NCBI GenBank assembly: GCA_029856105.1
Contig: JAHQWH010000015.1
Coordinates: forward strand, 164,543 to 228,542
Direction of reading: 5' to 3'
DNA: 64,000 nucleotides
Origin: Promethearchaeia archaeon
GTDB lineage: Archaea; Asgardarchaeota; Lokiarchaeia; Sigyniarchaeales; SOKP01
Of this stretch, positions 3,650 through 35,715 are shown piece by piece. The first letter of the stretch is position 1, and each line of letters starts with the position of its first letter. The translations under genes were made by a program, and so were the position numbers. Below the pieces are notes generated by a model. The model had not been told where the DNA came from. It did not search any database and saw only the letters and a program-made list of their open reading frames with translations.

Positions 3650-3716
3650 GTTGAGTTTACACTAATTATAAATATTTGACATAATAATAAAAATAAAATA
3701 TAGGAAAGAGAGAAAA

Positions 3717-5012: not shown

Positions 5013-5013
5013 A

Positions 5014-6849: not shown

Positions 6850-6857
6850 AATTTATA

Positions 6858-6867
6858 TTTTTTTTTA
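6858..6867 (+). terminator. oligo-T terminator after aclA
   Basis: T-run just after the stop codon. Confidence 0.45.
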
Positions 6868-7000
6868 TAAATAATAATTCACAATTAAAAATCGGAAAGA
6901 AACATTTGATTAACTTATAATTAATCAATAAATTGTAATATCAAGAGTATTAAAAAAAATCATAGAAAAGTAAAAAGTAAAAGAAATAGGGAAAACAAAA

Positions 7001-8194: not shown

Positions 8195-8252
8195 TATGAA
8201 TTACTAAAAATATAACGATAACATTCAATTGAGTAAATTTTAACTTTTAATC

Positions 8253-8271
8253 TTTTTATTTTTTTTTTTTT
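8253..8271 (+). terminator. long oligo-T terminator after icd
   Basis: TTTTTA followed by a 13-T run. Confidence 0.5.
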
Positions 8272-8272
8272 A

Positions 8273-8762
8273 AAAAGTCCGATCCTTCCACCTGACCTTA
8301 TTATAGAGAAATGTGATTCGCGTGATCACTCCTTTAGCAAGGAAATCAATAATCACATTATGAAAATCCTAGAGACGTTTGGAATAGATAATCTTGGAAG
8401 TATTGTCGAATATGATTATGATCCATACACCGCATGGTGGGCCAGTCGCATTATCATAACTGGTGGTGCATCGAACATCCTTGGTTTGAGGTCCTTGCTC
8501 ATTAGAGAGCTAGCTAAAAAGACTTACTGGTTGTGAAAAAGCACCCTCATGTCCTTTAGTGGATGTAAGTTTCAGAGACATCGCCTTTACAATACGTAAT
8601 GTCCCTCTCGAAGATACACCTGGAACATGGTTGGGAGCATCGATAGAATCCAGCCTTAAAACATTCAAAGAGTGTTTTGTATCAAAAGAGATGTATTCAA
8701 ATAATACGGATATAATTTTCACATTACACCATGAAAAAATGTGGACATCTATACTCAAATAA
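8273..8762 (+). pseudogene. 5'-truncated, frameshifted actin-related protein fragment (C-terminal third of actin fold)
   Basis: First frame: ILPPDLI...INNHIMKILE...SRIIITGGASNILGLRSLLIRELAK; +1 shift at the A5 run 8516-8520; second frame RLTG...TWLGASIESSLKTFKECFVSKEMY. Matches actin NxVLSGGTTMxPGIxDRxxKE and [24 protein letters not shown]. Confidence 0.7.
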
Positions 8763-8770
8763 GAAGGATT

Positions 8771-9760
8771 TTATTCGATGTATATATCTCTATTTTTTAA
8801 ATTCTCTAAAACATAATTTTCTTTATCATTGAGAATGGGATTATTTTTTAAATCTAAATCCTCAAGTAATTCAAGTTTAAGCAAAGATTCAGGTAAATTG
8901 GAGATTTTATTATTAAATAGATATAATCGAATTAGAGATTTAAGGTTGCCGATTGATTCAGGTAAAGTAGTTAACTCATTTTCCATCAAATCTAAAATTT
9001 CAAGATATGCAAAATTTCCTATGGATTTTGGAAGGATCGTCAATTTATTCTTTTTTAAACCCAAATATGTTAATTGGGAAAGATCTCCTATAGAATCTGG
9101 AATATTAGTTAATTGATTACCCGATAAATCTAAAAAATTAAGAACCTTGAGTTTATTTATTGATTCTGGAATTTCTGTCAAATTACTATCTACGAAACTT
9201 AATCCAACTAGATTTTTAATCGCCAATAAAGATTCAGGAAAAGCGGATAAATTGCTATTACTGAAATCTAAATGAAATTCTGACAAATTTTTCATTGATT
9301 CTGGAAAACATTCAAATTCTGTGTCAAAAAGCGCTAAAAATTCAAGAGAACTTAAGGATCCTATTGATTCTGGAAGATTTTTTAGTGGGTTTCCATCAAG
9401 CAGTAATGAATCAAGATTTTTAAGCTTTCCTATAGAATTTGGAAGTGAAGTTATTTGGTTCTCTCTCAATTCGATTAATTCTAAAGATTTTAAGTTATCT
9501 AAACAATTTGGTAGATGAGTAAGTTGATTATGTGCTAAATACAAAAATTTTAGCGATTTAAGTTCACAAATAGAATCGGGAAGGGACTCCAACCGATTAT
9601 AAGATAAATCAAGATATTCTAAATTATCAGAATCTTCTAAACACTTGAGATCTTCTAAATTTGTTAACCCAATATTTCCTAATTGATAGCCTATATAGCC
9701 ATCATGATCCTCCTTTAGGAAATACTTCTCTCCATTAACTTCAATAAAATTTCCTGTCAT
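8771..9760 (-). CDS. leucine-rich repeat protein
   Basis: About 10 23-aa LxxLxLxxNxLxxLPxSIGxL repeats. Confidence 0.92.
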   Translation of the reverse strand: MTGNFIEVNGEKYFLKEDHDGYIGYQLGNIGLTNLEDLKCLEDSDNLEYLDLSYNRLESLPDSICELKSLKFLYLAHNQLTHLPNCLDNLKSLELIELRENQITSLPNSIGKLKNLDSLLLDGNPLKNLPESIGSLSSLEFLALFDTEFECFPESMKNLSEFHLDFSNSNLSAFPESLLAIKNLVGLSFVDSNLTEIPESINKLKVLNFLDLSGNQLTNIPDSIGDLSQLTYLGLKKNKLTILPKSIGNFAYLEILDLMENELTTLPESIGNLKSLIRLYLFNNKISNLPESLLKLELLEDLDLKNNPILNDKENYVLENLKNRDIYIE

Positions 9761-9859
9761 ATAGCTCTCAATTAATTATTATTTGAAAAAAAAATTGAAT
9801 TTTTTGATTCCATTCAAATCTAATGAATACTATAATTGTTGAATACTTAATAAAAATGC

Positions 9860-14541: not shown

Positions 14542-14715
14542 ATAAATTTATTCATATTATTGTCTAATTTTTCTAAGTAGTGTATAAAACATCTCATCTA
14601 TTACTTAAATTATGATAGGTTTATATAATCGAAACTATTTAACTTCTTATTGATGATATTAGCTGCAAAGCTAAGGAAATCTTTACAAAAATGTTTAAAA
14701 AACAGGGATAAATTA

Positions 14716-16806
14716 ATGTGTAAAAATAAAAAAATCAAAGTAAGAGTTGCATTATTATTAATTCTGGCGATTTTTTTTTCAAGTCCTTTTATATTTTTAA
14801 AGACAAGCCAATCTGATGATGAAGCAAGAGCATTAGATGAGAGAAGTATCAGAAGTGCTAATAGCATATGGAGCTACACTGCGGGAGATGGTTTATTTTC
14901 GGTGGCAATCTCCTCCGATGGACATTACATTGTCGCAGGAGGCCATGATAACAAGGTGTATCTCTTCGATAAAGCCAGCCCCACCCCCCTATGGAACTAC
15001 ACGACGGGAGGTTGGGTACGTTCGGTGGCAATCTCCTCCGACGGGCAGTATATTGTCGCGGGAAGCGATGATGATCATGTGTATTTCTTCAATAAAACTA
15101 GCTCCACTCCACTATGGAACTTCACTACGATAGTTAATATATATTCAGTGGCAATTTCCTCCAATGGGCAGTACATTGCTGCGGGAATCTATCGCTCGGT
15201 CTATTTTTTCGATAAAGCCAGCTCCAATCCCCTATGGTATCACGACACGGGAGATGCGGCAGTAGTAACTTCGGTGGCGATCTCGTCCGACGGGCAGTAC
15301 ATTGCCGCAGGAAACTATGGTAACAAAACATATCTTTTTAATAAAGCCAGCTCTACTCCCCTATGGAGCTACACTGCGGGAGATCGGGTACAATCGGTGG
15401 CAATTTCCTCCGACGGACAGTACATTGCTGCGGGAAGCTATGATAACAAAGTATATCTCTTCGATAAAGCCAGCTCCACCCCACTATGGAGCTATACTAC
15501 GGGAGATAATGTATATTCGGTGGCAATTTCCTCCGACGGGCAGAACATTGCCGCGGGAAGCTATGATGACAAGATATATCTCTTCGATAAAGCCAGCTTC
15601 ACTCCCCTATGGAACTATACTACGGGAAATAGTGTATTTTCGGTGGCAATTTCCTCCGATGGGCAGAACATTGCCGCAGGAAGCGTGGACGACAAGGTAT
15701 ATCTCTTCGATAAAGCCAGCTCCACCCCCCTATGGAACTATACTACGGGAAGTCATGTACATTCGGTGACAATCTCCTCCGATGGGCAGTATATTGCCTC
15801 GGGAGGTTGGGGTAATACGATATATCTCTTCGATAACAAGCCCTATACATTTACATTGTCTACAGATGCCGATGTTCCTGATTTGGACGGTATATTTTCT
15901 TTAAATTGGACTGTTTCTTCTGGTGCAACTAATTACTCCGTGTATCGTCATTCCAGTTATATTAATGAAATTAACGATAGTTTAATCCTTCTAGCGTATG
16001 AAATCACCGATCTGAGTTTATATTTGAGCGAATATTCAGATGAAACCTATTATTTCATTGTTGTTGCAAATAACACTTACGGTGAGACCTTATCAAATTG
16101 CATTACGGTGGTGGTGGGCTTACTTCCGGGAAGCTTCACATTATCTTCAAATGCGAGCGATCCCGATGACAATGGCCTTTTTATTCTTTCTTGGACTGGT
16201 TCTTCTGGCGCAACTAATTACTCCATATATCAATACTCCAGTTTTATCACGGAAATTAACGGCAGTTTAACCCTTCTAGCGGACGAAATCACCGATCCAA
16301 GCCTAGATTTGAGTGGATATTCGGACGGAACCTATTATTACATTGTTGTTGCGCATAATCAAATTGGAGATACTTCATCAAACTGTATTACTGTAATTGT
16401 TCAAATTACCAAATCGTTCACGATCATTACTCCCAATATCTCCTCTTCGTGGGAATGTGGTACGTCTCAGTCTATATCTTGGTCTTCAACGGGGATTATT
16501 TTGAATATTAAACTTGAACTCTATAGAAATGATGTGTTCGTAATGGAGATTATTTCAAGTACTGCTAATAATGGCGAAGTTTACTGGGTAGTTTTCTCGG
16601 AACTCGCGAGTTCTGACCACTATCAGATCAAAATTATAGACGTATCTAATGCTTCCATTTTCGCCTATAGCGACTACTTTGAAATAGAAAACACTTTACC
16701 AACAGAACCACCTGGTATTCCGGGATATAATGTACTATTTCTTATTGCTACTTTAGGTTCAATTATGGCATTAATTATGAAAAAATGTTCTAATTCCATG
16801 AAATAA
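14716..16806 (+). CDS. secreted/surface WD40-like beta-propeller protein with two FN3-like domains, Ser/Thr-rich Ig-like domain and Loki-CTERM-type anchor
   Basis: N-terminal signal/TM; 8 x 42-aa SVAISSDGQYIAAGSYDNKVYLFDKASSTPLW repeats; duplicated FTLS...GATNYS.Y domain; C-terminal PGIPGYNVLFLIATLGSIMALIMKK; ORF-track start is 14650. Confidence 0.85.
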   Translation: MCKNKKIKVRVALLLILAIFFSSPFIFLKTSQSDDEARALDERSIRSANSIWSYTAGDGLFSVAISSDGHYIVAGGHDNKVYLFDKASPTPLWNYTTGGWVRSVAISSDGQYIVAGSDDDHVYFFNKTSSTPLWNFTTIVNIYSVAISSNGQYIAAGIYRSVYFFDKASSNPLWYHDTGDAAVVTSVAISSDGQYIAAGNYGNKTYLFNKASSTPLWSYTAGDRVQSVAISSDGQYIAAGSYDNKVYLFDKASSTPLWSYTTGDNVYSVAISSDGQNIAAGSYDDKIYLFDKASFTPLWNYTTGNSVFSVAISSDGQNIAAGSVDDKVYLFDKASSTPLWNYTTGSHVHSVTISSDGQYIASGGWGNTIYLFDNKPYTFTLSTDADVPDLDGIFSLNWTVSSGATNYSVYRHSSYINEINDSLILLAYEITDLSLYLSEYSDETYYFIVVANNTYGETLSNCITVVVGLLPGSFTLSSNASDPDDNGLFILSWTGSSGATNYSIYQYSSFITEINGSLTLLADEITDPSLDLSGYSDGTYYYIVVAHNQIGDTSSNCITVIVQITKSFTIITPNISSSWECGTSQSISWSSTGIILNIKLELYRNDVFVMEIISSTANNGEVYWVVFSELASSDHYQIKIIDVSNASIFAYSDYFEIENTLPTEPPGIPGYNVLFLIATLGSIMALIMKKCSNSMK
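14865..15838 (+). repeat. 8 x ~126-bp intragenic tandem repeat (WD40 blades)
   Basis: Recurrent TCGGTGGCAAT(C/T)TCCTCCGA(C/T)GG and CTCTTCGATAAAGCCAGC at about 126-bp period; GC visibly above the rest of the window. Confidence 0.9.
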
Positions 16807-17284: not shown

Positions 17285-17956
17285 ATGAAAATTTCCAAAT
17301 TATCTAGAAGAGAACGTGAAAAATTACAGCGTCGTAACGATATACTCAAAGCTGCTGAAAAAAGATTCTTTAATAAAGGCTATGATGAGGTTTCTATGGA
17401 TGATATCGCGGGAGATTTAGAGCTTTCTAAAACAACGCTCTATTTGTATTTTAAAAATAAACCTTCATTGTATTTTGCCGTAGTAATAAAAGGTATGGTT
17501 ATCCTTAGGAATATATTGAAAAATGCTATAAAAAACGAGGAATCAGGATTAGGAAAAATAATGGGCATAATTCGAGCTTACTTTGATTACATACAAATTC
17601 ATCTAGATTATTATGGCCTTAATCTTTCATCTAGAGCCATTCGTTTTACGAAAATGCTTAAACCTAACGAGGAGGGTGATACAGAAATTGAAAATGCTGA
17701 AGAGTATATCGGATTAACAAAAGAATTACTTGAAATGTTAATTGACGCTGTCAGTTTGGGAATTAAGGATGGTACAATTAGAAAAAACCTGAATCCATTA
17801 CAGACAGTAATTTTCTTGGGTTCTACCATTGATTTTATAGTACAAATATCCCCCGAATATAAATTACTCTTAGAGATGTATAGCATAACTGCTGAGGAAT
17901 ATCTTCAACACTCGATTGATGTGTTATTACGAGGTCTAGCTGGGGAAAAAAAATAA
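17285..17956 (+). CDS. TetR/AcrR family transcriptional regulator
   Basis: ILKAAEKRFFNKGYDEVSMDDIAGDLELSKTTLYLYFKNK HTH. Confidence 0.93.
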   Translation: MKISKLSRREREKLQRRNDILKAAEKRFFNKGYDEVSMDDIAGDLELSKTTLYLYFKNKPSLYFAVVIKGMVILRNILKNAIKNEESGLGKIMGIIRAYFDYIQIHLDYYGLNLSSRAIRFTKMLKPNEEGDTEIENAEEYIGLTKELLEMLIDAVSLGIKDGTIRKNLNPLQTVIFLGSTIDFIVQISPEYKLLLEMYSITAEEYLQHSIDVLLRGLAGEKK

Positions 17957-17973: not shown

Positions 17974-18537
17974 ATGGAAAAAAATAAAATATTAATTGCG
18001 TATGGAACTCGTTACGGAGCGACAACTAGTACCGCAGAAGAAATTTCCAAAGTTCTTCAAGGTGAAGGATTTGATGTAAAAGTTGTAAATCTCCAAAAAG
18101 ATAAGGTAAAAGATATCACAAATTTTGAACTTGTTGTTATTGGAAGTGGAATGAAAATGGATATGTGGACGACTAAAGCTAAAGCATTTTTAAAGAAGTT
18201 TAGTGGTGAATTCAAGAAAAGGAAAGTGGCCATTTTCGTGTCATCAGGTGGACGGGCACTCATGGAACATAAAGGAGAACTTGATGAAATTGATAGAATA
18301 ACTAAAAAATACCTTGAAGATAAAGCTTCTAAATATGGTTTGAATCCAATATCAATGACTATGTTTGGAGGTGTTTGGGATTATAATCAGATTTCTAAAA
18401 TTTTTAGAAAATTCTTGGATGCAGAAAAAGAAAATTTTATCGCGGCAGGAATAAAAGAAACAGAGCCAGGAGTCTATGACACTAGAAATTGGGAGAATAT
18501 TCGTGCATGGGCTAAAGAGTTAGCTAGCAAGATTTAA
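17974..18537 (+). CDS. flavodoxin-domain protein (HemG/Flavodoxin_5-like)
   Basis: LIAYGTRYGAT FMN loop; DTRNWENIRAWA C-terminus; GGAGG RBS. Confidence 0.85.
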   Translation: MEKNKILIAYGTRYGATTSTAEEISKVLQGEGFDVKVVNLQKDKVKDITNFELVVIGSGMKMDMWTTKAKAFLKKFSGEFKKRKVAIFVSSGGRALMEHKGELDEIDRITKKYLEDKASKYGLNPISMTMFGGVWDYNQISKIFRKFLDAEKENFIAAGIKETEPGVYDTRNWENIRAWAKELASKI

Positions 18538-18705: not shown

Positions 18706-20886
18706 ATGATTTTAGCAGAAATGAAATATGAGCTTCACGAAGTCCAAAAAGGATACGCTAATAGGACTCTGTTCATTAATCTTTCAAACAATGAGATTAA
18801 AATCAAGCCTGTAACTGATATAATGAAAGAAAAGTTTATCGGTGGGAAAGGATTTGATCTTTGGCTCATGTGGAATGGACTTCCTCAAGATAGAATTGTT
18901 AAATGGGACGATTCCGAAAACGAAATTTGCATTTCTTCTGGACCTTTAGGAGGGAACATCTTTTACCCTGGTTCGGGGAAATCAATTGTTACAACAATAT
19001 CTCCTTTAACGGATATTATCGTGGATTCTAATGTTGGAGGTTATTTCGGTCCGTATTTAAAATTCTCGGGTTTTGATGCAATTGAAATTCAAGGTAAAGC
19101 TCAAAAAGAGGTTCTAATATACATAGATGGTGTTGAGGGTGTTGTTCAAATCAAAGAAGTTGAAAAATCAGAGGGGTTATCTAATTATTCTCATGAATTA
19201 ACTCAGCAACTTACTGAAGTGTACGCACAAGATGACCGTGAAAAACAACGAATCTCGGTCGTAACCACGGGTCCTGCCGCACAACACACGAATTGGGGGT
19301 TGTTAAACTTTTCTTGGTATGTTCCTGGCCGTAAATGGGCCTCAAGCAAACAAGCTGGGCGAGGGGGAATTGGGACCGTTTTTTATGATAAAAAAGTTAA
19401 AGCGTTGGTTTGTCGTACTCCAAAAGTTACAGTTGGTTCTAATCATCCTGCTAATTTAGAAGAAGCTAGAAAAGTAGGGATAGCACATACCCAAGAAATA
19501 ATTAAACTTGACCCAATACAAAACGAAATGCGTAGAGTTGGAACGGGACATCTTCCTGAGATCATGAATGTTACTGACCTTCTACCAACAGAAAATTATC
19601 GCTTCGGAAGACACAAAGAAATTAATGGAAAAGATATCCCGTATAGTAGAGAGATAATGAGAGAGATATATTCTGGAAAAGAAGGCGGGGATGGATGTTG
19701 GATTGGATGTACTGTTAGCTGTTCTCATTATTCAGAAGGCCACGAAGTTTTAACGGGACCATTTAAGGGTCAAAAATTGATTGTTGATGGCCCAGAATAC
19801 GAAACAATAGCCGGATGTGGGTCAAATTGGGGCGTTTGGGACCCAAAATGGGTTTTAGAAGTTAATTTTTACTGCGATACTTACGGCTTAGATACAATTT
19901 CAGTTGGGACAGGTATAGCATTTGTTATGGAGTGTTATGAAGCGGGTATTTTAAATAAGGAAAGGACTGGAGGATTGGAATTAAATTTCGGAGATGTTGA
20001 AGCTGCGGTTGAGTTAATTCACCACATGGCTAAAGGTAAAGGTTTTGGAGTTATAGTTGGAAAAGGTATTAAATATATGAAAAAATATTTTGTTGAAAAC
20101 TTTGGAGCGGACCCACAATTTGTTCAAGATATTGGTATGGAACACAAAGGTTTAGAATTTTCTGAGTATGTAACCAAAGAATCATTAGCGCAACAGGGGG
20201 GATATGGATTAACGAATAAAGGCCCACAACACGACGAGGCTTGGCTTATCTTTGACGATGTAATTAGAAACTCGATTCCAACATTCGAAGACAAAGCTAA
20301 AGCTTTGAGGTATTTCCCATTATGGAGAACTTGGTTTAGTTTATGCGGTTTATGCAAGCTACCGTGGAACGATATCCAACCATTAAGTCAAGCAGATTAC
20401 CCCCTCAAAGATCCTAAAACGGGAGAGTTAGTTCGAGCAAAAATTCCCGATCACGTTGAAAATTACGTTAAATATTATTCAGCAGTTACGGGACATCAAT
20501 CAACATCGAAAGATCTCATAAAGATGTCTGAAAGAGTGTATACATTTCAAAGGATATTTAACATTAGGTTGGGCAAAGGGCTTCGAAAACACGATTCAAA
20601 TCTACCTTATAGAGCAGTGGGACCAGTTACTCCACTTGAATACGAAAGTCGTGTTGAGAGGTACGATACACAGCTTAAAGAGTTAGGGCTTAAATTTAAC
20701 GGTAAATCAACCGAAGAAAAAATTACAATACTACGTAAGCATCGTGAAGAACAGTATACAAAACTTCAAGACGCGGTTTATTTAGAGCGAGGATGGAACA
20801 ATAACGGTTGTCCTACTATAGAGATGGTACGAAAATTGGGAATTGATTTTGACGAAGTAATTGATGTTATCTCTCCTTATCAATAA
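18706..20886 (+). CDS. tungsten-containing aldehyde:ferredoxin oxidoreductase family protein
   Basis: FIGGKG, ISPLT, DSNVGG, GFDAIEIQGKA, AGRGGIG, GPEYET, CDTYGLDTISVG, GLCKLPW, RGW. Confidence 0.9.
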   Translation: MILAEMKYELHEVQKGYANRTLFINLSNNEIKIKPVTDIMKEKFIGGKGFDLWLMWNGLPQDRIVKWDDSENEICISSGPLGGNIFYPGSGKSIVTTISPLTDIIVDSNVGGYFGPYLKFSGFDAIEIQGKAQKEVLIYIDGVEGVVQIKEVEKSEGLSNYSHELTQQLTEVYAQDDREKQRISVVTTGPAAQHTNWGLLNFSWYVPGRKWASSKQAGRGGIGTVFYDKKVKALVCRTPKVTVGSNHPANLEEARKVGIAHTQEIIKLDPIQNEMRRVGTGHLPEIMNVTDLLPTENYRFGRHKEINGKDIPYSREIMREIYSGKEGGDGCWIGCTVSCSHYSEGHEVLTGPFKGQKLIVDGPEYETIAGCGSNWGVWDPKWVLEVNFYCDTYGLDTISVGTGIAFVMECYEAGILNKERTGGLELNFGDVEAAVELIHHMAKGKGFGVIVGKGIKYMKKYFVENFGADPQFVQDIGMEHKGLEFSEYVTKESLAQQGGYGLTNKGPQHDEAWLIFDDVIRNSIPTFEDKAKALRYFPLWRTWFSLCGLCKLPWNDIQPLSQADYPLKDPKTGELVRAKIPDHVENYVKYYSAVTGHQSTSKDLIKMSERVYTFQRIFNIRLGKGLRKHDSNLPYRAVGPVTPLEYESRVERYDTQLKELGLKFNGKSTEEKITILRKHREEQYTKLQDAVYLERGWNNNGCPTIEMVRKLGIDFDEVIDVISPYQ

Positions 20887-20913
20887 TAATAAATATTTTA
20901 AATATGATTCTAA

Positions 20914-22995
20914 ATGGAAAACATAACCAAACATCCCATCCTGGAAATTCCCGAAAGAAAGAGAATAAAATTCAAATTTGACGGGAAAGCATTAAACGGA
21001 TTTGAGGGAATGGTTATATCTTCAGCTTTATTTCTTAATAAAATTAAAATTTTTGGTCATCACATAAAAGATTCTAGTCCTCAGGGAATGTTTTGTGCTA
21101 ATGGACAATGCTCTCAGTGTAATGTAATCGCCGATGGTATTCCAGTAAAAGCTTGTATGACGCTTCTAACAGATGGAATGGAAATAAGAAGTTGTGATGG
21201 TTTACCAGAACTACCTCTTGTGGACAGTGCCGTAGAAGTTGGCGATATAGATATTATTAATACAGAAGTTCTTGTTATTGGTGGGGGTCCAGCTGGATTA
21301 TCGGCTACCAAACTTTTTGGAGAGCGTGGAATAGATGTCTTACTAATTGACGATAAAAATAGACTTGGCGGTAAACTAGTACTTCAAACCCACAAATTTT
21401 TTGGTTCCCAAGAAGTATATGCTGGTAAGCGCGGTATCGATATAGCAGAGATTCTTGGTGAGATTGTAAGTTCGTTGAACTCAATAAAAGTTTGGCTCAA
21501 TAGCACGGTTGTAGCTGTATTTAGCGACAATTTTATTGGTGTTTTGAAGAAAAATGAAGAATATGTGTTAGTTAGGCCGAATTATCTGTTGATTGCAACT
21601 GGAGCAAGAGAGAAAATGTTAGTTTTTCCGGGAAATACTCTTCCAGGAGTGTACGGTGCAGGTGCATTTCAAACTTTAGTTAACCGCGATCTCGTTAAAG
21701 CTGCCGATAAAGTTTTTATAGTTGGCGGTGGAAATGTTGGATTAATTGCGGGATATCACGCTATCCAAGCAGGAATAGATGTTGTTGGTTTGATCGAAGC
21801 TCTATCTCTATGTGGTGGTTATAGAGTTCACGAAGATAAACTTAGAAGGTTAGGAGTTCCCATTTACACCAATCATACAATTATTTCTGCAAACGGCCAA
21901 AGCAAGGTAGAATCGATCACAATTGGTAAATTAGACGATAAATTTAACCTTATTCCCGGAACTGAAAGAACATTTAGTTGCGATACTATCTTAATTGCGG
22001 TAGGGTTAAATCCCGTTAACGAATTTTATAACAAAGCAAAACAATTCAATATGAAAGTTAGGGTTGCTGGAGACGCTCAAGAAATTGCTGAAGCGTCAGC
22101 TGCGATTTTTACAGGAAGAATTGAAGCGCTAAAAATGCTAAAAGAAATGGGAATCGAAATAGAAGAAAATATCGATGAATTGGAAAAATTTGCAAACATT
22201 ATGAAAGCAAAACCTCCAGCTCCCCGTGAAATAAAAATAATTGAAAAAGAAGATGGTATTTTTCCTCTCTTTCATTGCAATCAAGAAATTCCTTGTAACC
22301 CTTGCACATCTGTGTGTCCTCAAGGGCAAATTGAGACCGTGGATAACTTAATCACGCAATTACCATACTTTAAAGGCGAAGAGGACTGTATAGGCTGCGG
22401 AAAGTGCGTAGCTGTATGTCCGGGATTGGCAGTAACGCTAGTTGACTATCGAAAAGACAAGGAATACCCATCAGTTACATTTCCTCTTGAATTAACTTCT
22501 GAAAAAATAAGTGTTGGGCAAAAAGTTATCGTTGTAAGCGATAACCGAGAATTAGGAGAATTTGAAGTTAAACGCTCAAGATTTCTTAAAGAGTTTCCAA
22601 AAACTCTATTAATTACCGTCAAAATTCCTGCAGAATTAGCAAAAATTGCCGTTGCTATCAAACTTCAAAAAACTACGTATGATCAACCCTTAGATATATA
22701 TCAAAAATCCTATACTGACGACGATGTTATAGTTTGTAGGTGTGAACGCGTATCAGTGGGCGAAATTCGAAAATGGATTCGATATGGAATTAAAGATCTC
22801 AACGAATTAAAAGCTTTGACTAAAGTTGGAATGGGAGCTTGCGGCGGGAAGACTTGTACGCCATTAATTAATCGGATTTTTCGCGAAGAAGGCGTTTTAC
22901 CGGAAGAGGTTATTCCTAGCACAAGTAGGCCATTATTTATAGAAGTCCCTATGAGTGCTTTTGCTAGAGCTAAAGTAAAGAAGGGAGGTAAATAA
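20914..22995 (+). CDS. FAD/NAD-dependent oxidoreductase with 2Fe-2S, 4Fe-4S and BFD-like domains (proline dehydrogenase / sarcosine oxidase alpha-like, fused)
   Basis: CANGQCSQC, GGGPAG, ATGARE, GGGNVG, CNPCTSVCP and CIGCGKCVAVCP, CRCE...GACGGKTC. Confidence 0.85.
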   Translation: MENITKHPILEIPERKRIKFKFDGKALNGFEGMVISSALFLNKIKIFGHHIKDSSPQGMFCANGQCSQCNVIADGIPVKACMTLLTDGMEIRSCDGLPELPLVDSAVEVGDIDIINTEVLVIGGGPAGLSATKLFGERGIDVLLIDDKNRLGGKLVLQTHKFFGSQEVYAGKRGIDIAEILGEIVSSLNSIKVWLNSTVVAVFSDNFIGVLKKNEEYVLVRPNYLLIATGAREKMLVFPGNTLPGVYGAGAFQTLVNRDLVKAADKVFIVGGGNVGLIAGYHAIQAGIDVVGLIEALSLCGGYRVHEDKLRRLGVPIYTNHTIISANGQSKVESITIGKLDDKFNLIPGTERTFSCDTILIAVGLNPVNEFYNKAKQFNMKVRVAGDAQEIAEASAAIFTGRIEALKMLKEMGIEIEENIDELEKFANIMKAKPPAPREIKIIEKEDGIFPLFHCNQEIPCNPCTSVCPQGQIETVDNLITQLPYFKGEEDCIGCGKCVAVCPGLAVTLVDYRKDKEYPSVTFPLELTSEKISVGQKVIVVSDNRELGEFEVKRSRFLKEFPKTLLITVKIPAELAKIAVAIKLQKTTYDQPLDIYQKSYTDDDVIVCRCERVSVGEIRKWIRYGIKDLNELKALTKVGMGACGGKTCTPLINRIFREEGVLPEEVIPSTSRPLFIEVPMSAFARAKVKKGGK

Positions 22996-22997
22996 TC

Positions 22998-24164
22998 CTG
23001 GTAGAATTCGACGTGGTTATCATAGGGGCAGGAAGTGTTGGAGTTCCAACGGCCTTAGCTACTGCAGAGAATGGACTTAAAACACTCGTTTTAGATTCTC
23101 TTCCTTCCGTTGCCCAAGGGGATAATAAGCACGCTATTGGAGGGATCAGAGCTACACATTCGCTCAAAAGTAAGATATGGTTATGTCAAAGATCTATAGA
23201 AGTTTTTTCTACTTGGAGGGATTTACACGGTGATGACATCTGGTGGGAACAAGGAGGGTACTCCTTTTTAGCTTTTACCGAAGAACACGAAAAAATGCTA
23301 AAAGAGACAGTTCGACAACAAAAAGAATATGGGTTAAATATAAAATATGTAGACAAAGAAAAAATAAAAGAACTTATACCTGGGATTAATAGTGAGAATT
23401 TATTAGGAGGCACATTTAGTCCTGAAGATGGAAATGCTTCTCCGTTATTATCTCTTCATTCATTTTATCGTAAATCTAAAGAATTAGGAGCTGAATATAA
23501 CTTTAATGAAGAAGTTATTGATATTATTACAAAAGATAAAGCAGTTTTAGGAGTTAAAACTAGTAAAGCTGAATATAAAACACAATTTGTAATTAATGCT
23601 GCAGGCGGTCGCGCTAAAGACATTGGAGATATGATTGGTATTGATTTACCCGTCATTCCTGAAAGCCATGAAGCAGGGATCACGGAGCCAGTTAAGAAAT
23701 TCTTCTCTACGATGGTAATTGATATTAACCCTGCCACAGATACAAAGTTTGGAAACTCAAAAAATTACTATTTTTATCAAAACAAAGAAGGAAAAGTTAT
23801 CTTTTGTTTGACTCCTGATCCTAATATTCCCGGCATAGATCGACGCGAAACAAGCTTATACTTACCTCAAATTTCAAAACGTATGGTTAATTTATTACCT
23901 CGATTAAAAAATATAAAAATTAGGAGAACATGGCGCGGTTTGTACCCTATGTCACCAGATGGCAATCCAATTATCGGCAAAGTTAACGATATTGAAGGAT
24001 ATATTAATGCTGTTGGATTATGTGGACAGGGATTTATGCTGGGGCCAGGCCTTGGCGAACTATTAAGTCGCTTACTAATAGATAAATTAAATCAAAAGGA
24101 TAAAGAAATTTTAACCGAACTTGCATACGGACGAGATTTTTTTGAAGTAGAAGATTTAAAGTAA
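22998..24164 (+). CDS. FAD-dependent amino-acid dehydrogenase, DAO family (proline dehydrogenase / sarcosine oxidase beta-like); probable CTG start
   Basis: (M)VEFDVVIIGAGSVG, GGIRA, INAAG, RTWRGLYPMSPDGNPIIG, GQGFMLGP; GGAGGT 7 nt before CTG 22998; ORF-track start is 23013. Confidence 0.85.
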   Translation: MVEFDVVIIGAGSVGVPTALATAENGLKTLVLDSLPSVAQGDNKHAIGGIRATHSLKSKIWLCQRSIEVFSTWRDLHGDDIWWEQGGYSFLAFTEEHEKMLKETVRQQKEYGLNIKYVDKEKIKELIPGINSENLLGGTFSPEDGNASPLLSLHSFYRKSKELGAEYNFNEEVIDIITKDKAVLGVKTSKAEYKTQFVINAAGGRAKDIGDMIGIDLPVIPESHEAGITEPVKKFFSTMVIDINPATDTKFGNSKNYYFYQNKEGKVIFCLTPDPNIPGIDRRETSLYLPQISKRMVNLLPRLKNIKIRRTWRGLYPMSPDGNPIIGKVNDIEGYINAVGLCGQGFMLGPGLGELLSRLLIDKLNQKDKEILTELAYGRDFFEVEDLK

Positions 24165-24257
24165 ACATTATGATAAATAATCCTATAAATCAAGTTAAAC
24201 TAATAAATTTGATAAATAAATAAACAATAAAATTATAAAGTAAAAGTGGTATTAAAA

Positions 24258-25190
24258 ATGGTCCGACATTTAACCAAAATTTCTGACTTTTCTAAAGCAG
24301 AATGTGAGAATGTAATTAATAAAGCAATAGAAATTAAGAAGAATCCAGACAAATTTGACACTGCCTTAAAAGGAGAGACGCTTTTAATGGTATTTGAAAA
24401 ACCATCGCTAAGAACTAGAATCTCTTTTGAAGTAGGAATGCAACAGTTAGGTGGTCATGCGATTTTTTATTCAATAAAGGAATCTCCTCTTGGCAAGAAA
24501 GAAAATATTCACGACACAGCAAAAACTGCCTCGAGATTCGTTCATTTAATAGCAGCAAGAGTGTTTAAAAGACATGATATTTGGGATTTAGCCCAATATG
24601 CAGATGTCCCAGTAATTAATATGCTTGACGATTTCGCGCATCCGTGTCAAATGATTGGGGATTTTTTAACTATAAAAGAAAAGAAAGAAAGATTGGAAGA
24701 TTTAAAAATAGCCTACTTTGGAGATGCGTATAACAATGTTACCTACGATTTAATGCGAATAGCCGCTATGTTTGGTCTAAAGTTAGATGTTGCTTGTCCA
24801 GAGGGAACAGCTTATACGCCTGAACAAATTGTTCTTGAAGAGGTGGCTCAAATTTCAAAAAAAACTGGAGCAAAAGTGAATGTAGTTCATAATGCTTTCG
24901 ATGCTGCAAAAGATTCTGACATAATTTATACCGATTCTTGGATGTCTTACGGTATTCCAGTTGAAGAAGAGGATGACCGAAGGAAGATTTTCATGCCATA
25001 TCAAGTATCTCTAAAAATAATGAAAGCCGCGAAACCAGACGCAATTTTTATGAATTGTTTACCGGCAAAACGAGGTTACGAACAAACCGCTGAAGTTATT
25101 GATGGTTCTCAATCAATTGTATTTGATCAAGCAGAAAATAGATTACATGGTCAAAAAGCAATTATGCTCTTTTTACGAGAAAAATTTTAA
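24258..25190 (+). CDS. arcB: ornithine carbamoyltransferase (probably catabolic)
   Basis: FEKPSLRTR, HPCQ, GDAYNNVTYDLMR, YTDSWMSY, FMNCLPA, DQAENRLH. Confidence 0.92.
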   Translation: MVRHLTKISDFSKAECENVINKAIEIKKNPDKFDTALKGETLLMVFEKPSLRTRISFEVGMQQLGGHAIFYSIKESPLGKKENIHDTAKTASRFVHLIAARVFKRHDIWDLAQYADVPVINMLDDFAHPCQMIGDFLTIKEKKERLEDLKIAYFGDAYNNVTYDLMRIAAMFGLKLDVACPEGTAYTPEQIVLEEVAQISKKTGAKVNVVHNAFDAAKDSDIIYTDSWMSYGIPVEEEDDRRKIFMPYQVSLKIMKAAKPDAIFMNCLPAKRGYEQTAEVIDGSQSIVFDQAENRLHGQKAIMLFLREKF

Positions 25191-25254
25191 ATAGTAAGTT
25201 AGATATTATTATTTTTTCAATTTTGGTAATTATCTAACTACTAGAGGTTTTTTT

Positions 25255-26169
25255 TTGAAAACATTAATCGTTGCGCTTGGAGGAAATGCCCTCATTAAAC
25301 CTGGGGAAAGAGGAACCCCCGAACAAATGATTAATAATCTACAATCCCCTATTAAACAAATTGCAGAATTATCTGAAGAGTATAATATTATTATTACCCA
25401 TGGCAATGGCCCTCAAGTAGGTGCGCTACTCCTTCAACAAGAAGCTACCGATGAGATTACAAGAATGCCTTTACAAATTTTAGTAGCCGAAACTCAAGGA
25501 CAGATTGGATTTTTAATTGAATCGACCCTTGATGAAGAGCTCATGCACCTTGGGATTGACCTTGATAAATATTTTATTACTGTTTTGACTTATGTTGAAG
25601 TTGATCCCAACGATCGAGCGTTTAAACACCCAACTAAACCAATTGGACCTATATATAAAAAAAAGCAACCTGGATATGTGAAGACTTCCAAAGGTTGGAG
25701 GCGGGTAGTTCCATCACCAAAACCATTAAGAATTGTTCAATCACGAGAAATTAAAAAGTTAATCCAAGAGAACTTCATCGTTATATCTTGTGGTGGTGGT
25801 GGAATTCCTGTAATGAAGGAAGGAACTCGCTTTCAAGGTATTGAAGCCGTTATCGATAAAGATCTCGCAAGCGCAAAGTTAGGCGAACAAGTAAACGCAG
25901 ATATTTTAATAATTGCTACAGATGTAGAAAAAGTGGCGTTAAATTACGGCAGAATTGATTATAAGTACCTCGATAGGGTTTCAACAACAGATGCAAAAGA
26001 ATACATGAAGCAAGAACATTTTCCTCCTGGAAGTATGGGTCCTAAAATACAAGCAGTAATAAATTTCTTAGAATCTGGTGGCGAGCAAGCCATTATAACT
26101 TCAATTGAAAAAATTAAAGAAGCTTTAGAGGGTACATCCGGTACCCATTTCTTTATTAAGGATAATTAA
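25255..26169 (+). CDS. arcC: carbamate kinase
   Basis: ALGGNAL, THGNGPQVG, PTKPIGP, WRRVVPSP, GGGGIP, EAVIDKD, GSMGPK. Confidence 0.95.
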   Translation: MKTLIVALGGNALIKPGERGTPEQMINNLQSPIKQIAELSEEYNIIITHGNGPQVGALLLQQEATDEITRMPLQILVAETQGQIGFLIESTLDEELMHLGIDLDKYFITVLTYVEVDPNDRAFKHPTKPIGPIYKKKQPGYVKTSKGWRRVVPSPKPLRIVQSREIKKLIQENFIVISCGGGGIPVMKEGTRFQGIEAVIDKDLASAKLGEQVNADILIIATDVEKVALNYGRIDYKYLDRVSTTDAKEYMKQEHFPPGSMGPKIQAVINFLESGGEQAIITSIEKIKEALEGTSGTHFFIKDN

Positions 26170-26280: not shown

Positions 26281-26940
26281 ATGGTTAGAAAAATTGATAA
26301 AGATATCAAGCAATACTATGCCGACAGAGCATATGAATATAATAAGACATATTTAAGACCTGAACGTCAAAAAGATATTAAAAAACTTCATAAATTGCTA
26401 ACCACCCTATTAAAAGGTCATTTGGTACTTGAGGTTGCATGTGGAACTGGCTATTGGACTAAGACAATTGCATCGGTTTCAAAATTTATTACTGCTGTTG
26501 ATGTAAATGATGAAGTTCTTCAAATAGCAAAAAGTCGCAGAATTCCTTCAGATAAGGTAATTTATGTTCAAGATGATGTTTATAAATTAAATAAAATTCA
26601 AAATAATTTTTCTGCTGGTTTTGCTGGTTTTTGGTGGTCGCACATATTAAAATCTAAATTAAAAAGATTTATTGCCTTATTTCATTCAAAGCTTCAACCA
26701 AACGCTCTTGTTATTTTTATTGATAATCGACGTGTGAAGGGAAGCTCTACACCAATAAGTCGAATTGATATTCATGGAAATTCTTACCAAATAAGGAAAT
26801 TAGAGGATGGTCGAGAATATGAAATATTGAAAAATTTTCCTACTAAGAAAGAAATTCGCGAAACTATTGGAAATAAAGTTAAAAATCTTAAGATTAAATT
26901 TTTGACATATTTTTGGATTGTATCATATAATATTGAATAA
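26281..26940 (+). CDS. class I SAM-dependent methyltransferase
   Basis: YYADRAYEY, VLEVACGTGYWT, FAGFWWSH. Confidence 0.88.
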   Translation: MVRKIDKDIKQYYADRAYEYNKTYLRPERQKDIKKLHKLLTTLLKGHLVLEVACGTGYWTKTIASVSKFITAVDVNDEVLQIAKSRRIPSDKVIYVQDDVYKLNKIQNNFSAGFAGFWWSHILKSKLKRFIALFHSKLQPNALVIFIDNRRVKGSSTPISRIDIHGNSYQIRKLEDGREYEILKNFPTKKEIRETIGNKVKNLKIKFLTYFWIVSYNIE

Positions 26941-27105: not shown

Positions 27106-28365
27106 TTACGCTACCAGCACATTTTCGATAATTTTCAAAGCCCAATCGATTTGATCTTTAGTTATAATTAGAGGCGGGGCAAAACGAATAATTGTAGAAT
27201 GAGTGTGTTTGGCCAACACGCCCTTATCTTTAAACATTTCGACTATGTGCCTTGCATCTGATTCAAATTCAATCGCTAATAATAGACCTTTACCTCTAAC
27301 CTCTTTTATTGGAACTATAGTTTTCTTTTTTGCGATATTTCTAAGCCCTTCTAGAAAATAACCTCCAAATTCTTTGGCTCTTTGAGCTAAATGGTCGTCA
27401 ATATGAATCTCTAACGATTTCATAGCAACCGCACTAGCTAAAGGGTTTCCTCCAAATGTGCTTCCATGCGTTCCAGGTTTAATAACATCAGGACCAATTA
27501 TATCTTTAGTAGTGACTATTGCAGAAACGGGATAAACGCCTCCGCCAAGCGCCTTTCCAAGTAACATCGCGTCAGGCTTCACATTTTCGTGGTCACATCC
27601 AAAAAACGCCCCAGTTCTTCCAAAACCAGTCTGAATCTCGTCAGCAATCATCAGAACATTGTACTTTGTACAGATCTCTCTAACTTTTTTTATGTATCCT
27701 TCAGGAGGGATTTTTACGCCAGCCTCTCCTTGAATTGGCTCAAATAGGAACGCCGCTACTTTTTCAGGGCCGATTTCTAAAATTATATTTTCTAATTCTT
27801 CAGCATCTCCATACGGAATAATTATAAACCCAGGAGTGTAAGGTCCGAAGTTTCCATAGTATCTTACAGCTTCAATATCCGTACTAAATCCTGCTATTGT
27901 TATTGACCTTCCATGAAAATTATCTCTGCAAACAATAATTTTAGCTTCGTTTTTAGGAATCTTCTTTTTAATATAACCCCATGCTCTCGCAACTTTTAAA
28001 CCAGAAGAGACCGCTTCAGTTCCCGTGTTCATTGGAAGCGCCATTATTCCAGAATTGTTTGGATCGTTGATATGCGGTCCAACGACTTCGCACAATTTTT
28101 TTAAAAAGGGACCCATCATATCGTTATAGAACGCACGAGATGTTAAAGTGACCTTATCTGCTTGTTCTTTTAAAGCTTTTATAATTTCGGGGTGACAATG
28201 CCCCGTATTTTGGGAAGAATAGGCAGATAAACAATCAATATATTTATTTCCTTCGGGGTCGTATACCCATACACCCTCCGCTTTTGAAATAACGACGGGA
28301 ATCGGGTGATAATTATGAGCGCAGTATTCATTATCCAAATCTATATAATATTTTGAGTCGGGCAA
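27106..28365 (-). CDS. rocD: ornithine--oxo-acid aminotransferase
   Basis: AHNYHPIPVV, DCLSAYS, GHCHP, LTSRAF, PMNTGTEA, FHGR, EPIQGEAG, DEIQTG, LGKALGGG, HGSTFGGNPL. Confidence 0.92.
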   Translation of the reverse strand: MPDSKYYIDLDNEYCAHNYHPIPVVISKAEGVWVYDPEGNKYIDCLSAYSSQNTGHCHPEIIKALKEQADKVTLTSRAFYNDMMGPFLKKLCEVVGPHINDPNNSGIMALPMNTGTEAVSSGLKVARAWGYIKKKIPKNEAKIIVCRDNFHGRSITIAGFSTDIEAVRYYGNFGPYTPGFIIIPYGDAEELENIILEIGPEKVAAFLFEPIQGEAGVKIPPEGYIKKVREICTKYNVLMIADEIQTGFGRTGAFFGCDHENVKPDAMLLGKALGGGVYPVSAIVTTKDIIGPDVIKPGTHGSTFGGNPLASAVAMKSLEIHIDDHLAQRAKEFGGYFLEGLRNIAKKKTIVPIKEVRGKGLLLAIEFESDARHIVEMFKDKGVLAKHTHSTIIRFAPPLIITKDQIDWALKIIENVLVA

Positions 28366-33463: not shown

Positions 33464-34003
33464 TTATTTTTCCCTATTAGAGATTACGCTAAGAACAAGA
33501 GTTTTAAATGCTTTTTCAACATTACCCCCATGTTTAGCACTCGTCTCGATAAATTCGCTAGCTTTCATTTTTTTTGCTAATTTTTCACCGTCTTGGGTTG
33601 TAACTATCTTTGCCTCTGTTAAATCGCTTTTATTGCCAATCAAAAGATATGCAGCGTTCTTATTTCCAAACTCTTTTAAATCTTTTAGCCATTTGGATTT
33701 TAAATCCTTAAAGGTAGCTGGTCGAGTTACATCATACACAAATAAGGCTCCAGCGCAACCTTGAAAAAACGCTTTTCGCGATAAATCATATTTATCTTGG
33801 CCTGCTATATCCCAGAGTATCATTTTAACATGGACATTCTTTTCCTCAACATTCATCTCTTTTATAACAATATTAACTCCCAAAGAAGGTTGATAATCTT
33901 GTTCAAACTTCTGATGAATATATTGATTAATTAGTGATGTTTTTCCAACAGCAGAATTACCTAAAACGGCTAATTTAAAAATCATATCAGTTCTATCAGA
34001 CAT
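33464..34003 (-). CDS. Rab-like small GTPase
   Basis: G1 GNSAVGKT, G2 YQPSLG, G3 WDIAGQ, G4 NKSD, G5 ETSAK; no C-terminal Cys prenylation motif. Confidence 0.93.
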   Translation of the reverse strand: MSDRTDMIFKLAVLGNSAVGKTSLINQYIHQKFEQDYQPSLGVNIVIKEMNVEEKNVHVKMILWDIAGQDKYDLSRKAFFQGCAGALFVYDVTRPATFKDLKSKWLKDLKEFGNKNAAYLLIGNKSDLTEAKIVTTQDGEKLAKKMKASEFIETSAKHGGNVEKAFKTLVLSVISNREK

Positions 34004-34122: not shown

Positions 34123-35715
34123 CTAATAGCCTACCGCTTGTCCATCTTTTCGTGGATCGGAGGCTGCAAGATAGCCATCTTCGAGTTTATATATGATTTG
34201 ACCACCACCAAATTCGAAATAATGTCCATTATATACTTGATGACCCAGTTTTCTTAAGTGTTCTTGCGATTCTTTATTAAAGCCATGTTCAAGATTAACT
34301 TTCATTCCTTGCATTACTCGCCAACGTGGTGCATCGATCGCCGCTTGAGGGTTTTGTTCGTATTCAAATATTCTTACCATCATCTGAGCATGCCCCTGAG
34401 GTTGCATGGCCCCCCCCATAACACCGAAACTCATTACTGGTTCTCCTTTTTTCGTGACAAATGCGGGTATGATCGTGTGATACGGGCGCTTCTCCGGACC
34501 GACCTGATTTGGGTGTCCATCGATTAAAGTAAATCCGTTTCCCCTGTTTTGTAAGCTAATACCTGTTCCAGGTATCACAATTCCCGAACCGAACCCCATG
34601 TAATTCGATTGAATATACGATACCATCATACCTTCAGAATCAGCAGTAGCCAAATAAACGGTATCTCCCGTTTGGGGGCTACCAAACTTAAACTTCTGAG
34701 CTTTTTTTACGTCAATTAAGTTCGCTCGGCCTCTTAGATAATCAGAGCTAAGTATTAGGGAAGTGTCAAATTCCAAGAATTTTCTATCTGAGATATATCG
34801 ATATGCGTCAGAAAAAGCTAGTTTCATCGCTTCTATCTGCAAATGGATTGACTCTGGAGAATCGGGGTTGTATTGACTAAAATCAAAATTTTTTAACACA
34901 CCCAGTGCTATTAACGCAGCTAAGCCTTGGCCGTTTGGAGGTAATTCGTGTAGAGTTAAACCTTTATAACCCATAGTTATTGAACTCTCCCATTTTACCC
35001 CGTGATTCTCTAGATCTTCAAGCGTTATCAATCCACCAGTATTCATTGCATGGCTTACAATTTTTTTTGCTAATTTTCCACTATAAAAAGATTCTCCTTC
35101 CGTTTCTGCAATTTCTTTTAAGGTCTTTGCTTGATTCGGGTTTATAAATAATTCTCCTGGCTCGGGAGCCCTCCCCTCTGGGAGGAAGGTTTCGTGAAAT
35201 TCCGGGAATTTTCTTTTTTTATACATAGTTACCAATTGCTTCCATAGTTTTGCGGTTATCGGCGACACTAAAAACCCTTTCTCAGCGTATTTTATTGCGG
35301 GTTCAAATAATTCTTTAAACTTCAATTGCCCGTATTTTTTTGAAAGTTCAACCCAAGCTGAAACTGCTCCTGGAATCGTCGCAGAATCCCATCCTAAAAG
35401 TGGCATTGATTTATAATGAGAAAAATGTTCAAATGTCCATGATGCTGGAGATTTACCAGATGCGTTTAACCCATTTAATTTTTTTCCATCCCATATGATA
35501 GCAAAAGCGTCGCTTCCAATACCATTATTAACTGGTTCAACAACTGACAATGTTATAGCAGTTGCTATCGCAGAATCTACCGCATTCCCTCCTTTTTTGA
35601 GTATATTTAACCCCGCTTGAGAAGCAAGGGGTTGAGATGTAGATACTATATTTTTAGCTAATATTGGCATTCGCTGAGAAGAATAAGGAAAATCCCAATT
35701 AAATTCTTTTATCAT
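34123..35715 (-). CDS. ggt: gamma-glutamyltransferase family protein (YwrD-like)
   Basis: SQPLA, GGNAVD, GIGSDAF, PPNGQG, nucleophile DTVY, IQSNYMGFGSG, RPYHTIIP, GVMGG.MQPQGH, SDPRKDG. Confidence 0.88.
   Translation of the reverse strand: MIKEFNWDFPYSSQRMPILAKNIVSTSQPLASQAGLNILKKGGNAVDSAIATAITLSVVEPVNNGIGSDAFAIIWDGKKLNGLNASGKSPASWTFEHFSHYKSMPLLGWDSATIPGAVSAWVELSKKYGQLKFKELFEPAIKYAEKGFLVSPITAKLWKQLVTMYKKRKFPEFHETFLPEGRAPEPGELFINPNQAKTLKEIAETEGESFYSGKLAKKIVSHAMNTGGLITLEDLENHGVKWESSITMGYKGLTLHELPPNGQGLAALIALGVLKNFDFSQYNPDSPESIHLQIEAMKLAFSDAYRYISDRKFLEFDTSLILSSDYLRGRANLIDVKKAQKFKFGSPQTGDTVYLATADSEGMMVSYIQSNYMGFGSGIVIPGTGISLQNRGNGFTLIDGHPNQVGPEKRPYHTIIPAFVTKKGEPVMSFGVMGGAMQPQGHAQMMVRIFEYEQNPQAAIDAPRWRVMQGMKVNLEHGFNKESQEHLRKLGHQVYNGHYFEFGGGQIIYKLEDGYLAASDPRKDGQAVGY

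Follow-up and report, generated by a model that had tools for sequence, protein, structure and literature searches.

A clade-7 aldehyde oxidoreductase in a Loki arginine/proline gene cluster as the probable glutamate-5-semialdehyde:ferredoxin oxidoreductase

When a gene of the tungsten-containing aldehyde oxidoreductase family (WOR/AOR) stands among genes of arginine and proline metabolism, the question arises which aldehyde its product acts on and where the electrons go. Such an arrangement occurs in the 64,000-nucleotide stretch of DNA analysed here (the window), which lies on contig C19 of host genome G000, a 3.66-Mb genome of a Promethearchaeia archaeon of the Loki group; this genome is 92% complete, and all statements below on genes not found in it are to be read at that completeness. 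An earlier note on this DNA had proposed that the AOR of the cluster oxidizes glutamate-5-semialdehyde (GSA) to glutamate in place of the NAD-dependent pyrroline-5-carboxylate (P5C) dehydrogenase (P5CDH). Our analysis suggests that the AOR is most likely a GSA:ferredoxin oxidoreductase in a probable route from arginine and proline to glutamate. What speaks for the proposal is the conserved linkage to arc and roc genes, the lack of a detectable rocA or putA in the genome, and an exchange of AOR and P5CDH genes in Desulfosporosinus.

The plus-strand cluster consists of arcE, the AOR gene, the genes for a fused electron-transfer subunit (alpha) and a catalytic subunit (beta) of a flavoenzyme, arcB, and arcC, with rocD convergent on them (arcE-AOR-alpha-beta-arcB-arcC><rocD; Table 1). 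As the earlier note had described, the five genes from the AOR to arcC are co-oriented with gaps below 100 bp (27, 17, 81, and 64 bp) and rocD lies nearby; profile models confirm the families of all of them. The same note had overlooked arcE, which would add the entry step from arginine. The gene order is kept across the genus and also in a second genus, so that the link between the AOR and the arc/roc genes proves to be conserved. On beta-centred metagenome contigs long enough to show the gene in question, the AOR lies upstream of beta in 35/39 cases and arcB downstream in 40/48, while arcE is present in 18/22 and rocD in 18/30; these contigs come mostly from one lineage, so the relatives do not count as independent evidence. 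Many relatives show rocD in the same convergent position, and 21 of the 29 related genomes with both AOR and beta have them at most 10 kb apart. The arrangement of the cluster is not due to chance.

The clearest evidence for the substrate comes from two orthologous proline-dehydrogenase operons of Desulfosporosinus (L309:7539-12538 and L313:5757-11653), whose sequences can be aligned for 3,330 nt (79.8%) as far as the beta stop codon and whose betas are 89% identical. Past this stop codon, L309 carries a P5CDH gene after 39 bp (TIGR01236, 786 > 613.6), and L313 carries WorS and a clade-7 AOR, starting after 33 bp, that is 58% identical to the Loki AOR and has the same signature motifs. Clade-7 AOR and P5CDH thus replace each other in the same slot, which points to GSA as the substrate of the AOR clade. 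The enzyme whose step would be taken over, NAD-dependent P5CDH (RocA, PruA, or the C-terminal domain of PutA; TIGR01236-01238), has an unrelated fold and cofactor and yields NADH, in contrast to the reduced ferredoxin expected of a WOR.

Other bacterial members of the clade also lie among genes of amino acid metabolism. The AOR follows split proline dehydrogenase genes in 8 Firmicutes loci, most of them with a PrdR-like regulator (below the PrdR cut-off), accompanies glutamate dehydrogenase (GluDH) and 2-oxoacid:ferredoxin oxidoreductase in L042, L043, and L049 (Desulfosporosinus and a Thermoanaerobacteraceae genome), and adjoins P5CDH in 3 Bacteroidales loci and Xaa-Pro-peptidase-like genes in Anaerolineae; an ornithine-cyclodeaminase-like gene and a class III aminotransferase are further neighbours. 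In the beta tree, two different subfamilies are each linked to the AOR, which suggests that this linkage arose independently in both. Separately, we observed that in Sedimentibacter and one other Firmicute (L310, L311, and L314) the split proline dehydrogenase genes are followed by Xaa-Pro-peptidase-like and dipeptidase-like genes, with WorS-AOR elsewhere in these genomes and, in two of them, P5CDH elsewhere too. Seven loci (L031, L040, L050, L053, L063, L066, and L069) have a PpnP nucleoside phosphorylase gene in the neighbourhood of the AOR.

The AOR itself has both family domains above cut-off (AFOR_N, 159 bits; AFOR_C, 310 bits), and its predicted model (pLDDT 86) adopts the AOR fold, with Z 38-40 and rmsd 2.2-2.4 over ~570 residues against solved AORs. 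The second-shell residues T280, E366, Y488, and H509 (Thr243, Glu313, Tyr427, and His448 of PfAOR) are present, a set typical of aldehyde-oxidizing WORs, as are the [4Fe-4S] cysteines C331, C335, C339, and C550. Together with E364, all of these are shared by 95% or more of 101 clade members and are invariant in a 40-sequence alignment, across which the pocket region is unusually invariant; judged by this alignment, the catalytic and Fe-S residues are intact. Its nearest relatives, 68-85% identical, are mostly Promethearchaeota. Outside of these, the AOR is 55% identical over its full length to LOEW01000144 (3102-5294), that is, A0A124IPM5 from locus L049 of Desulfosporosinus sp. BRH_c37, which is listed in WOR clade 7 of the 92-clade scheme of Putumbaka et al. 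2026 (PMC13328260). This full-length similarity would make the Loki AOR a clade-7 type enzyme, or perhaps a sister to clade 7. The two share signature motifs and the same kinds of neighbours, and differ in that the Loki gene lies in an arc/roc cluster in which no WorS partner gene was found. In Tup-normalised terms, 19.24% of gut WORs belong to clade 7, for which no characterised member is listed, and a physiological role is defined for only five of the 92 clades; the main text of that study makes no mention of proline, ornithine, or semialdehyde, while its neighbourhood table for clade 7 contains proline-dehydrogenase-like, GluDH/KGOR, aminotransferase, and P5CDH neighbours (PMC13328260).

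Solved WORs from other clades are 18-30% identical to the Loki AOR. The best Foldseek match among them is FOR of P. furiosus (PDB 1B25/1B4N; E 3e-33), which also has the highest identity (27-30%), its Z being tied with three other AORs. FOR shares the motifs C-[RK]-L-P-W and H-x-E-A-W with the AOR clade, and seven other AOR paralogues of the host genome lack them. Glutaric semialdehyde or dialdehyde has been proposed as the substrate of FOR, whose physiological role is unresolved. FOR Arg481 and Arg492 probably hold the far carboxylate of glutarate; by sequence alignment, K551 of the Loki AOR matches R492 within C-[RK]-L-P-W, and the invariant R541 falls one position off R481. The Loki AOR is ~110 residues longer (726 vs ~620 aa), and its proposed substrate would differ in bearing an alpha-amino group. 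We rejected the identification as FOR proper, given an identity below orthology level, although the enzyme may function like FOR.

In the host genome, profile searches found neither PutA/Pro_dh nor P5CDH (rocA); for P5CDH, this extends to the genome what the earlier note had said of the window. The host has a single ALDH-family gene, for which succinic semialdehyde dehydrogenase, and not ProA, is the best match, with a score far below cut-off. A P5CDH-level match was found in none of the 20 genomes of the genus. For the onward steps, the host has a KGOR-like pair and three GluDH genes, the latter in tandem at C49:1426-5478 (L231). At three related loci, an NAD-type aldehyde dehydrogenase gene is inserted between arcB and arcC (L001:12018-13517, L181:10261-11763, and L194:5152-6654); it was rejected as a P5CDH, the best model being succinic semialdehyde dehydrogenase, below cut-off.

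The alpha chain of the flavoenzyme unites a [2Fe-2S] domain, an FAD/NAD domain, two [4Fe-4S] clusters, and a BFD [2Fe-2S] domain, that is, alpha, gamma, and delta components that occur as separate genes in Firmicutes; all 16 Fe-S cysteines are invariant in 11 orthologues. Both subunits have their best solved match in PDH1 of P. horikoshii (PH1363/PH1364, identified as its subunits in PMC4364671; PDB 1Y56), alpha in 1Y56_A (PH1363) and beta in 1Y56_B, the latter with E 2.7e-49 against 1.6e-22 for the runner-up, 27 orders of magnitude apart. The order alpha-gamma-delta and then beta equals pdhA-F-X-B of T. profundus (alpha-beta-gamma-delta type; PMC4364671), and the PDH2-type component set is found in full in the Loki fused chain plus beta, with the difference that alpha, gamma, and delta form one chain. 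The Firmicutes betas are nearest to the P. horikoshii L-proline dehydrogenase beta (E 3e-81 vs 4e-47 for sarcosine oxidase). The earlier note had offered as an alternative that glycine or sarcosine is oxidized to glyoxylate or formaldehyde. This fares poorly: the Loki proteins score far below cut-off with the models for soxA (155/1164 bits), soxB (94/529), and ThiO (105/251), on which a sarcosine or glycine oxidase identity was rejected, and no recurring neighbour family identified supports it. As for the start of beta, in the interval 22984-23000 GGAGGT lies within the alpha end, and a CTG follows at 22998, two bases past the alpha stop; this non-canonical codon is probably the start, the resulting 388 aa matching the homologue length.

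On the arginine side, the 445-aa reading frame at the head of the cluster has no Pfam or NCBIfam match. Its homologues carry the names 'predicted GTPase' or 'cyclic 2,3-diphosphoglycerate synthase' (cDPGS), and its likeness to real cDPGS is weak (E 0.0015). PMC11032458 describes ArcE in such terms, and as present in Lokiarchaeota and near arcB/arcC. By this description and by linkage to arcBC, the frame is a probable arginine synthetase ArcE; arcA (PF02274) was not found in the host genome. The arginine synthetase pathway of T. kodakarensis (ArcE, TK2200; PMC11032458, PMC13260591) likewise combines an ArcE-like protein, ArcB, and ArcC, without ArcA, with an ornithine aminotransferase. It differs in feeding proline synthesis, ATP, and carbamoyl phosphate, with no GSA-oxidizing WOR described in the accessible parts of the two sources, whereas the Loki cluster also encodes a WOR and a proline-dehydrogenase-like enzyme.

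Taken together, the route that we propose would run as follows. ArcE would convert arginine, ADP, and phosphate to citrulline, NH3, and ATP, so that with ArcB and ArcC arginine would yield ornithine and, by known chemistry, two substrate-level ATP. RocD would transaminate ornithine to GSA, which is in equilibrium with P5C, and the fused alpha chain with beta, if proline is its substrate, would interconvert proline and P5C. The clade-7 WOR would then oxidize GSA to glutamate at a pterin-bound tungsten (or molybdenum) centre and pass the electrons through its [4Fe-4S] cluster to a putative acceptor, ferredoxin or flavodoxin, thus replacing NAD-dependent P5CDH. In 11 retrieved loci a flavodoxin-family gene precedes the AOR gene, and the one in this cluster is a possible low-potential electron carrier for the AOR. 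Glutamate would continue through glutamate dehydrogenase and 2-oxoacid:ferredoxin oxidoreductase. The cofactor of the host WOR would probably be imported ready-made by an energy-coupling factor (ECF) transporter instead of being synthesized.

Several observations weigh against this assignment. Genome G042 combines the whole cluster with a likely P5CDH, two likely P5CDH genes occur in G055, and 16/50 other clade-7 genomes have a P5CDH-level match; on these co-occurrences, the idea that AOR and P5CDH strictly exclude each other was rejected. AOR and beta are both present but unlinked in three closed Loki genomes, two of which (G044 and G055) have a WorS-type ferredoxin gene beside the AOR, and beta lies at most 10 kb from the AOR in only 16/80 clade loci, many of them on short contigs; the neighbours of most clade members are unrelated. 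Broad-spectrum enzymes are common among the characterised WORs, and the role usually assigned to them is aldehyde detoxification. In the tree, the Loki beta and its Anaerolineae-type orthologues share a long branch that is separate from the Firmicutes and PDH1-type betas; identity to the PDH1-type betas is only about one-third. Compared with the characterised PDH1 beta, its flavin-side motifs are changed, T-x-R-C-G to N-K-H-A-I and G-H-G-F to G-Q-G-F, while the His and Tyr aligned to the PDH1 active-site pair are retained. Because it belongs to this divergent subfamily, the Loki beta would be L-proline-dehydrogenase-like with proline as a less certain substrate, and for the same reason the swap with P5CDH applies directly to the Firmicutes enzyme and not to the Loki one. 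Finally, moeA, moaC, moaE, and tupA were not found in G000, including with same-genus queries.

How do other explanations account for the same findings? One keeps the substrate and changes the direction: the WOR would mainly reduce glutamate to GSA with reduced ferredoxin, supplying proline, ornithine, and, via reversible ArcB and ArcE, arginine, or GSA would be dismutated: the WOR would oxidize one molecule to glutamate, and the flavoenzyme, serving as an NADH sink, would reduce a second one to proline. In an anaerobe that lacks quinones, NAD is an uphill acceptor for proline oxidation (about -120 mV), which counts for this direction; it is a matter of speculation that reduced ferredoxin from the AOR could drive proline:NAD oxidation. 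Moreover, no canonical route from glutamate to GSA was found in the host genome (proB, argC, and argG have no match above cut-off, and the ALDH has its best match elsewhere than in ProA), although it does have carB and proC; if reversible, the WOR could thus be the sole connection detected that leads from glutamate to arginine and proline. According to PMC11032458, ArcE is reversible in vivo, but the same source has Thermococcales without argGH run ArcE-ArcB-ArcC for degradation. The gene replaced in Desulfosporosinus, P5CDH, is catabolic, the bacterial neighbours look catabolic too (peptidase-like genes, amino acid transporters, GluDH, and KGOR), and the reduction of P5C is already covered by proC. 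We regard the reductive or dismutating direction as unlikely. Arginine biosynthesis is patchy in the genus: argC and argG were not found in G000, G017, G044, and G055, and one genome has both above cut-off (G034, C2:150925-152547).

A second explanation holds that an amino or imino acid other than L-proline is the substrate of the flavoenzyme (D-proline, hydroxyproline, pipecolate, a D-amino acid, or sarcosine/glycine), the WOR oxidizing the matching aldehyde (e.g., 2-aminoadipate semialdehyde, glyoxylate, or formaldehyde) instead of GSA. It draws on the divergent branch and motifs of beta and its modest identity to PDH1-type betas, on automatic beta names such as 'sarcosine oxidase beta' or 'D-amino acid dehydrogenase', and on an Anaerolineae orthologue (L296) that adjoins a gene of the cyclodeaminase/imine-reductase family. 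The low soxB and ThiO scores argue against it, as does the lead of L-proline dehydrogenase among solved relatives, and RocD makes GSA whatever beta does. The P5CDH swap directs the AOR clade to GSA, and lysine appears to have a route of its own: the minus strand of the window (44574-53860) carries lysine fermentation genes above cut-off, namely lysine 5,6-aminomutase alpha and beta, the reactivase KamB, lysine 2,3-aminomutase, KDD, and KCE, so a C6 semialdehyde would not be needed. We consider this explanation improbable. That the AOR is a general aldehyde detoxifier, merely co-regulated with amino acid catabolism, would suit the usual role of WORs, the unrelated neighbours of most clade members, and the frequent coexistence with P5CDH, but it is very improbable in view of the ten other AOR-family genes that the genome has for that job, the invariant pocket region, and an exact swap with P5CDH that a generalist leaves unexplained.

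The assignment of the AOR as a GSA:ferredoxin oxidoreductase leaves the question of its cofactor. The label of tungsten enzyme, used in the earlier note, is that of the AOR/WOR family; in this genome, neither canonical cofactor synthesis nor tungstate uptake was found. AFOR_C genes occur in 60/61 genomes searched, at 3-18 copies each (11 in the host), and moeA, moaC, and moaE in 21, 20, and 20 of the 61; none of the three synthesis genes was found in three single-contig genomes. In same-genus genomes with synthesis genes, these form one block (moeA-moaB-moeA-moaE-moaD-moaA-moaC-tupCBA), whose TupA-type transporter (PF12849) points to tungsten. The corresponding site is taken up in G000 and eight relatives by an ECF cassette, which comprises five or six genes, and a ninth shows its EcfT end only (loci of the relatives, L221-L227 and L233-L263). 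The cassette encodes EcfT, a double ATPase, and an S component (PF09819), together with a protein that is anchored in the membrane and bears a molybdopterin-binding domain (PF00174, above cut-off); one or two more exported proteins complete it. Since EcfT in G000, beside the flanking hydrolase gene, and the cassette in eight relatives occupy the site, an assembly gap is an unlikely cause of the missing moe and moa genes.

Synthesis genes and cassette were also never found together within the two families sampled. The genus has moeA in 11 genomes and the S component in 18, with zero overlap, and a second family has them in 2 and 10, again with zero overlap, while two more distant genomes have both. 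On a tree built from the AOR and not from species markers, there are at least five changes of state, and G000 differs from its sister G017. Fisher's test of moeA against the ECF cassette gives p 2e-6, a value overstated by the non-independence of kin, for which the five tree changes are the fairer measure. Because the cassette swaps its site with moe/moa/tup and carries a PF00174 domain, the simplest reading suggests that it is a candidate importer of a ready-made tungsten- or molybdenum-pterin cofactor. With the PF09819 S component, double ABC_tran, and the CbiQ T component in one operon, it has the makeup of a group I ECF transporter and resembles the vitamin importers of the YkoEDC type (shared S component, fused double ATPase, and CbiQ/EcfT), from which it differs by the accompanying PF00174 protein and the exchange with moe/moa/tup. 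In the literature searched, no description was found of an ECF transporter for pterin cofactors or of molybdopterin synthesis in Loki archaea. At L248 (G045, ~7483-9762), homologues of two exported cassette proteins directly adjoin a moeA-like gene, which may be a further link between the cassette and pterin metabolism. In Bacteroidales (L044, L045, L050, and L074), the clade-7 AOR is accompanied by moaA/moeA/moaC and a ModE-like regulator, in some of these loci also by ThiF or a WtpA/ModA-like transporter. That clade-7 WORs in general are dedicated GSA:ferredoxin oxidoreductases, with the host and about half of the sampled relatives using an ECF-imported pterin cofactor, is a tentative proposition to which we give slightly less than an even chance.

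Neither the fold nor the flanking pathways are new, and with FOR a semialdehyde-oxidizing tungsten enzyme has already been proposed. What appears new is that a large clade without characterised members would have GSA as its specific substrate: the literature searched holds no description of a GSA-oxidizing AOR, although most subscription papers lay outside the search, so that this is no proof of novelty. A named substrate makes the role of clade 7 directly testable. If correct, it would add a new role, tied to one specific substrate, to those of tungsten enzymes and would provide a ferredoxin-yielding route from arginine and proline to glutamate in Asgard archaea and in many anaerobic bacteria, including gut bacteria. 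Anaerobes would thereby gain low-potential electrons (ferredoxin, and hence H2 or an ion gradient), harvested at a step that textbooks assign to NAD, and the gap from ornithine and proline to glutamate would be filled in those Loki-type Asgard archaea where no P5CDH was found. Likewise, the several WOR genes that many of these archaea have, with an importer and without detectable synthesis, would imply cofactor dependence on partner cells in Asgard syntrophy.

Table 1. Genes of the arginine/proline cluster in the window and the ECF cassette elsewhere in the host genome
Feature	Position	Strand	Basis or remark
ArcE, probable arginine synthetase, 445 aa	12906..14243	+	homologue naming, linkage, weak cDPGS likeness
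Repeat-rich (WD40-like) surface protein, lineage-specific insertion within the cluster	14650..16806	+	sequence
TetR-family regulator, variable cluster member	17285..17956	+	PF00440; few loci have one
Flavodoxin-family protein, variable cluster member	17974..18537	+	PF12724 above cut-off
WOR/AOR-family large subunit, 726 aa, clade-7 type	18706..20886	+	AFOR_N and AFOR_C above cut-off
Fused electron-transfer subunit alpha, 693 aa	20914..22995	+	Fer2_4, Pyr_redox_2, 4Fe-4S dicluster, Fer2_BFD
DAO-family catalytic subunit beta, 388 aa (CTG 22998) or 383 aa (GTG 23013)	22998..24164	+	Pfam DAO
Ornithine carbamoyltransferase ArcB	24246..25190	+	TIGR00658 359.5 > 280.85; PRK00779 above cut-off
Carbamate kinase ArcC	25255..26169	+	TIGR00746 370 > 358.25
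SAM-dependent methyltransferase, non-conserved insertion between arcC and rocD	26281..26940	+	Pfam
Ornithine aminotransferase RocD (ornithine to GSA), convergent on arcC	27106..28365	-	TIGR01885 equivalog 520.5 > 378.4
ECF cassette in G000, outside the window	C60:2602-6697 (L243), C148:3-707 (L228)		split over contig ends; whole in G005

Around this core, the cluster varies among relatives. Insertions resembling the repeat-rich gene occur in few of them, arcE standing directly before the AOR in most, and the slot between arcC and rocD is empty or filled by other genes. A scan for sigma-70 promoters and terminators gave counts at chance level, the model being unsuited to an archaeon. Upstream of the cluster, the plus strand (1560-8194) carries a succinyl-CoA-synthetase-like pair, the two subunits of ATP-citrate lyase, and a gene of the isocitrate dehydrogenase family; in the relatives L115, L117, L130, L188, and L197, genes from this block are found a short way upstream of arcE, hinting at a glutamate/2-oxoglutarate super-cluster. 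The window further encodes, all on the minus strand, a leucine-rich-repeat protein (8771-9760), a Rab-like small GTPase (33464-34003), and a gamma-glutamyltranspeptidase (34123-35715), which are ordinary for a Loki genome.

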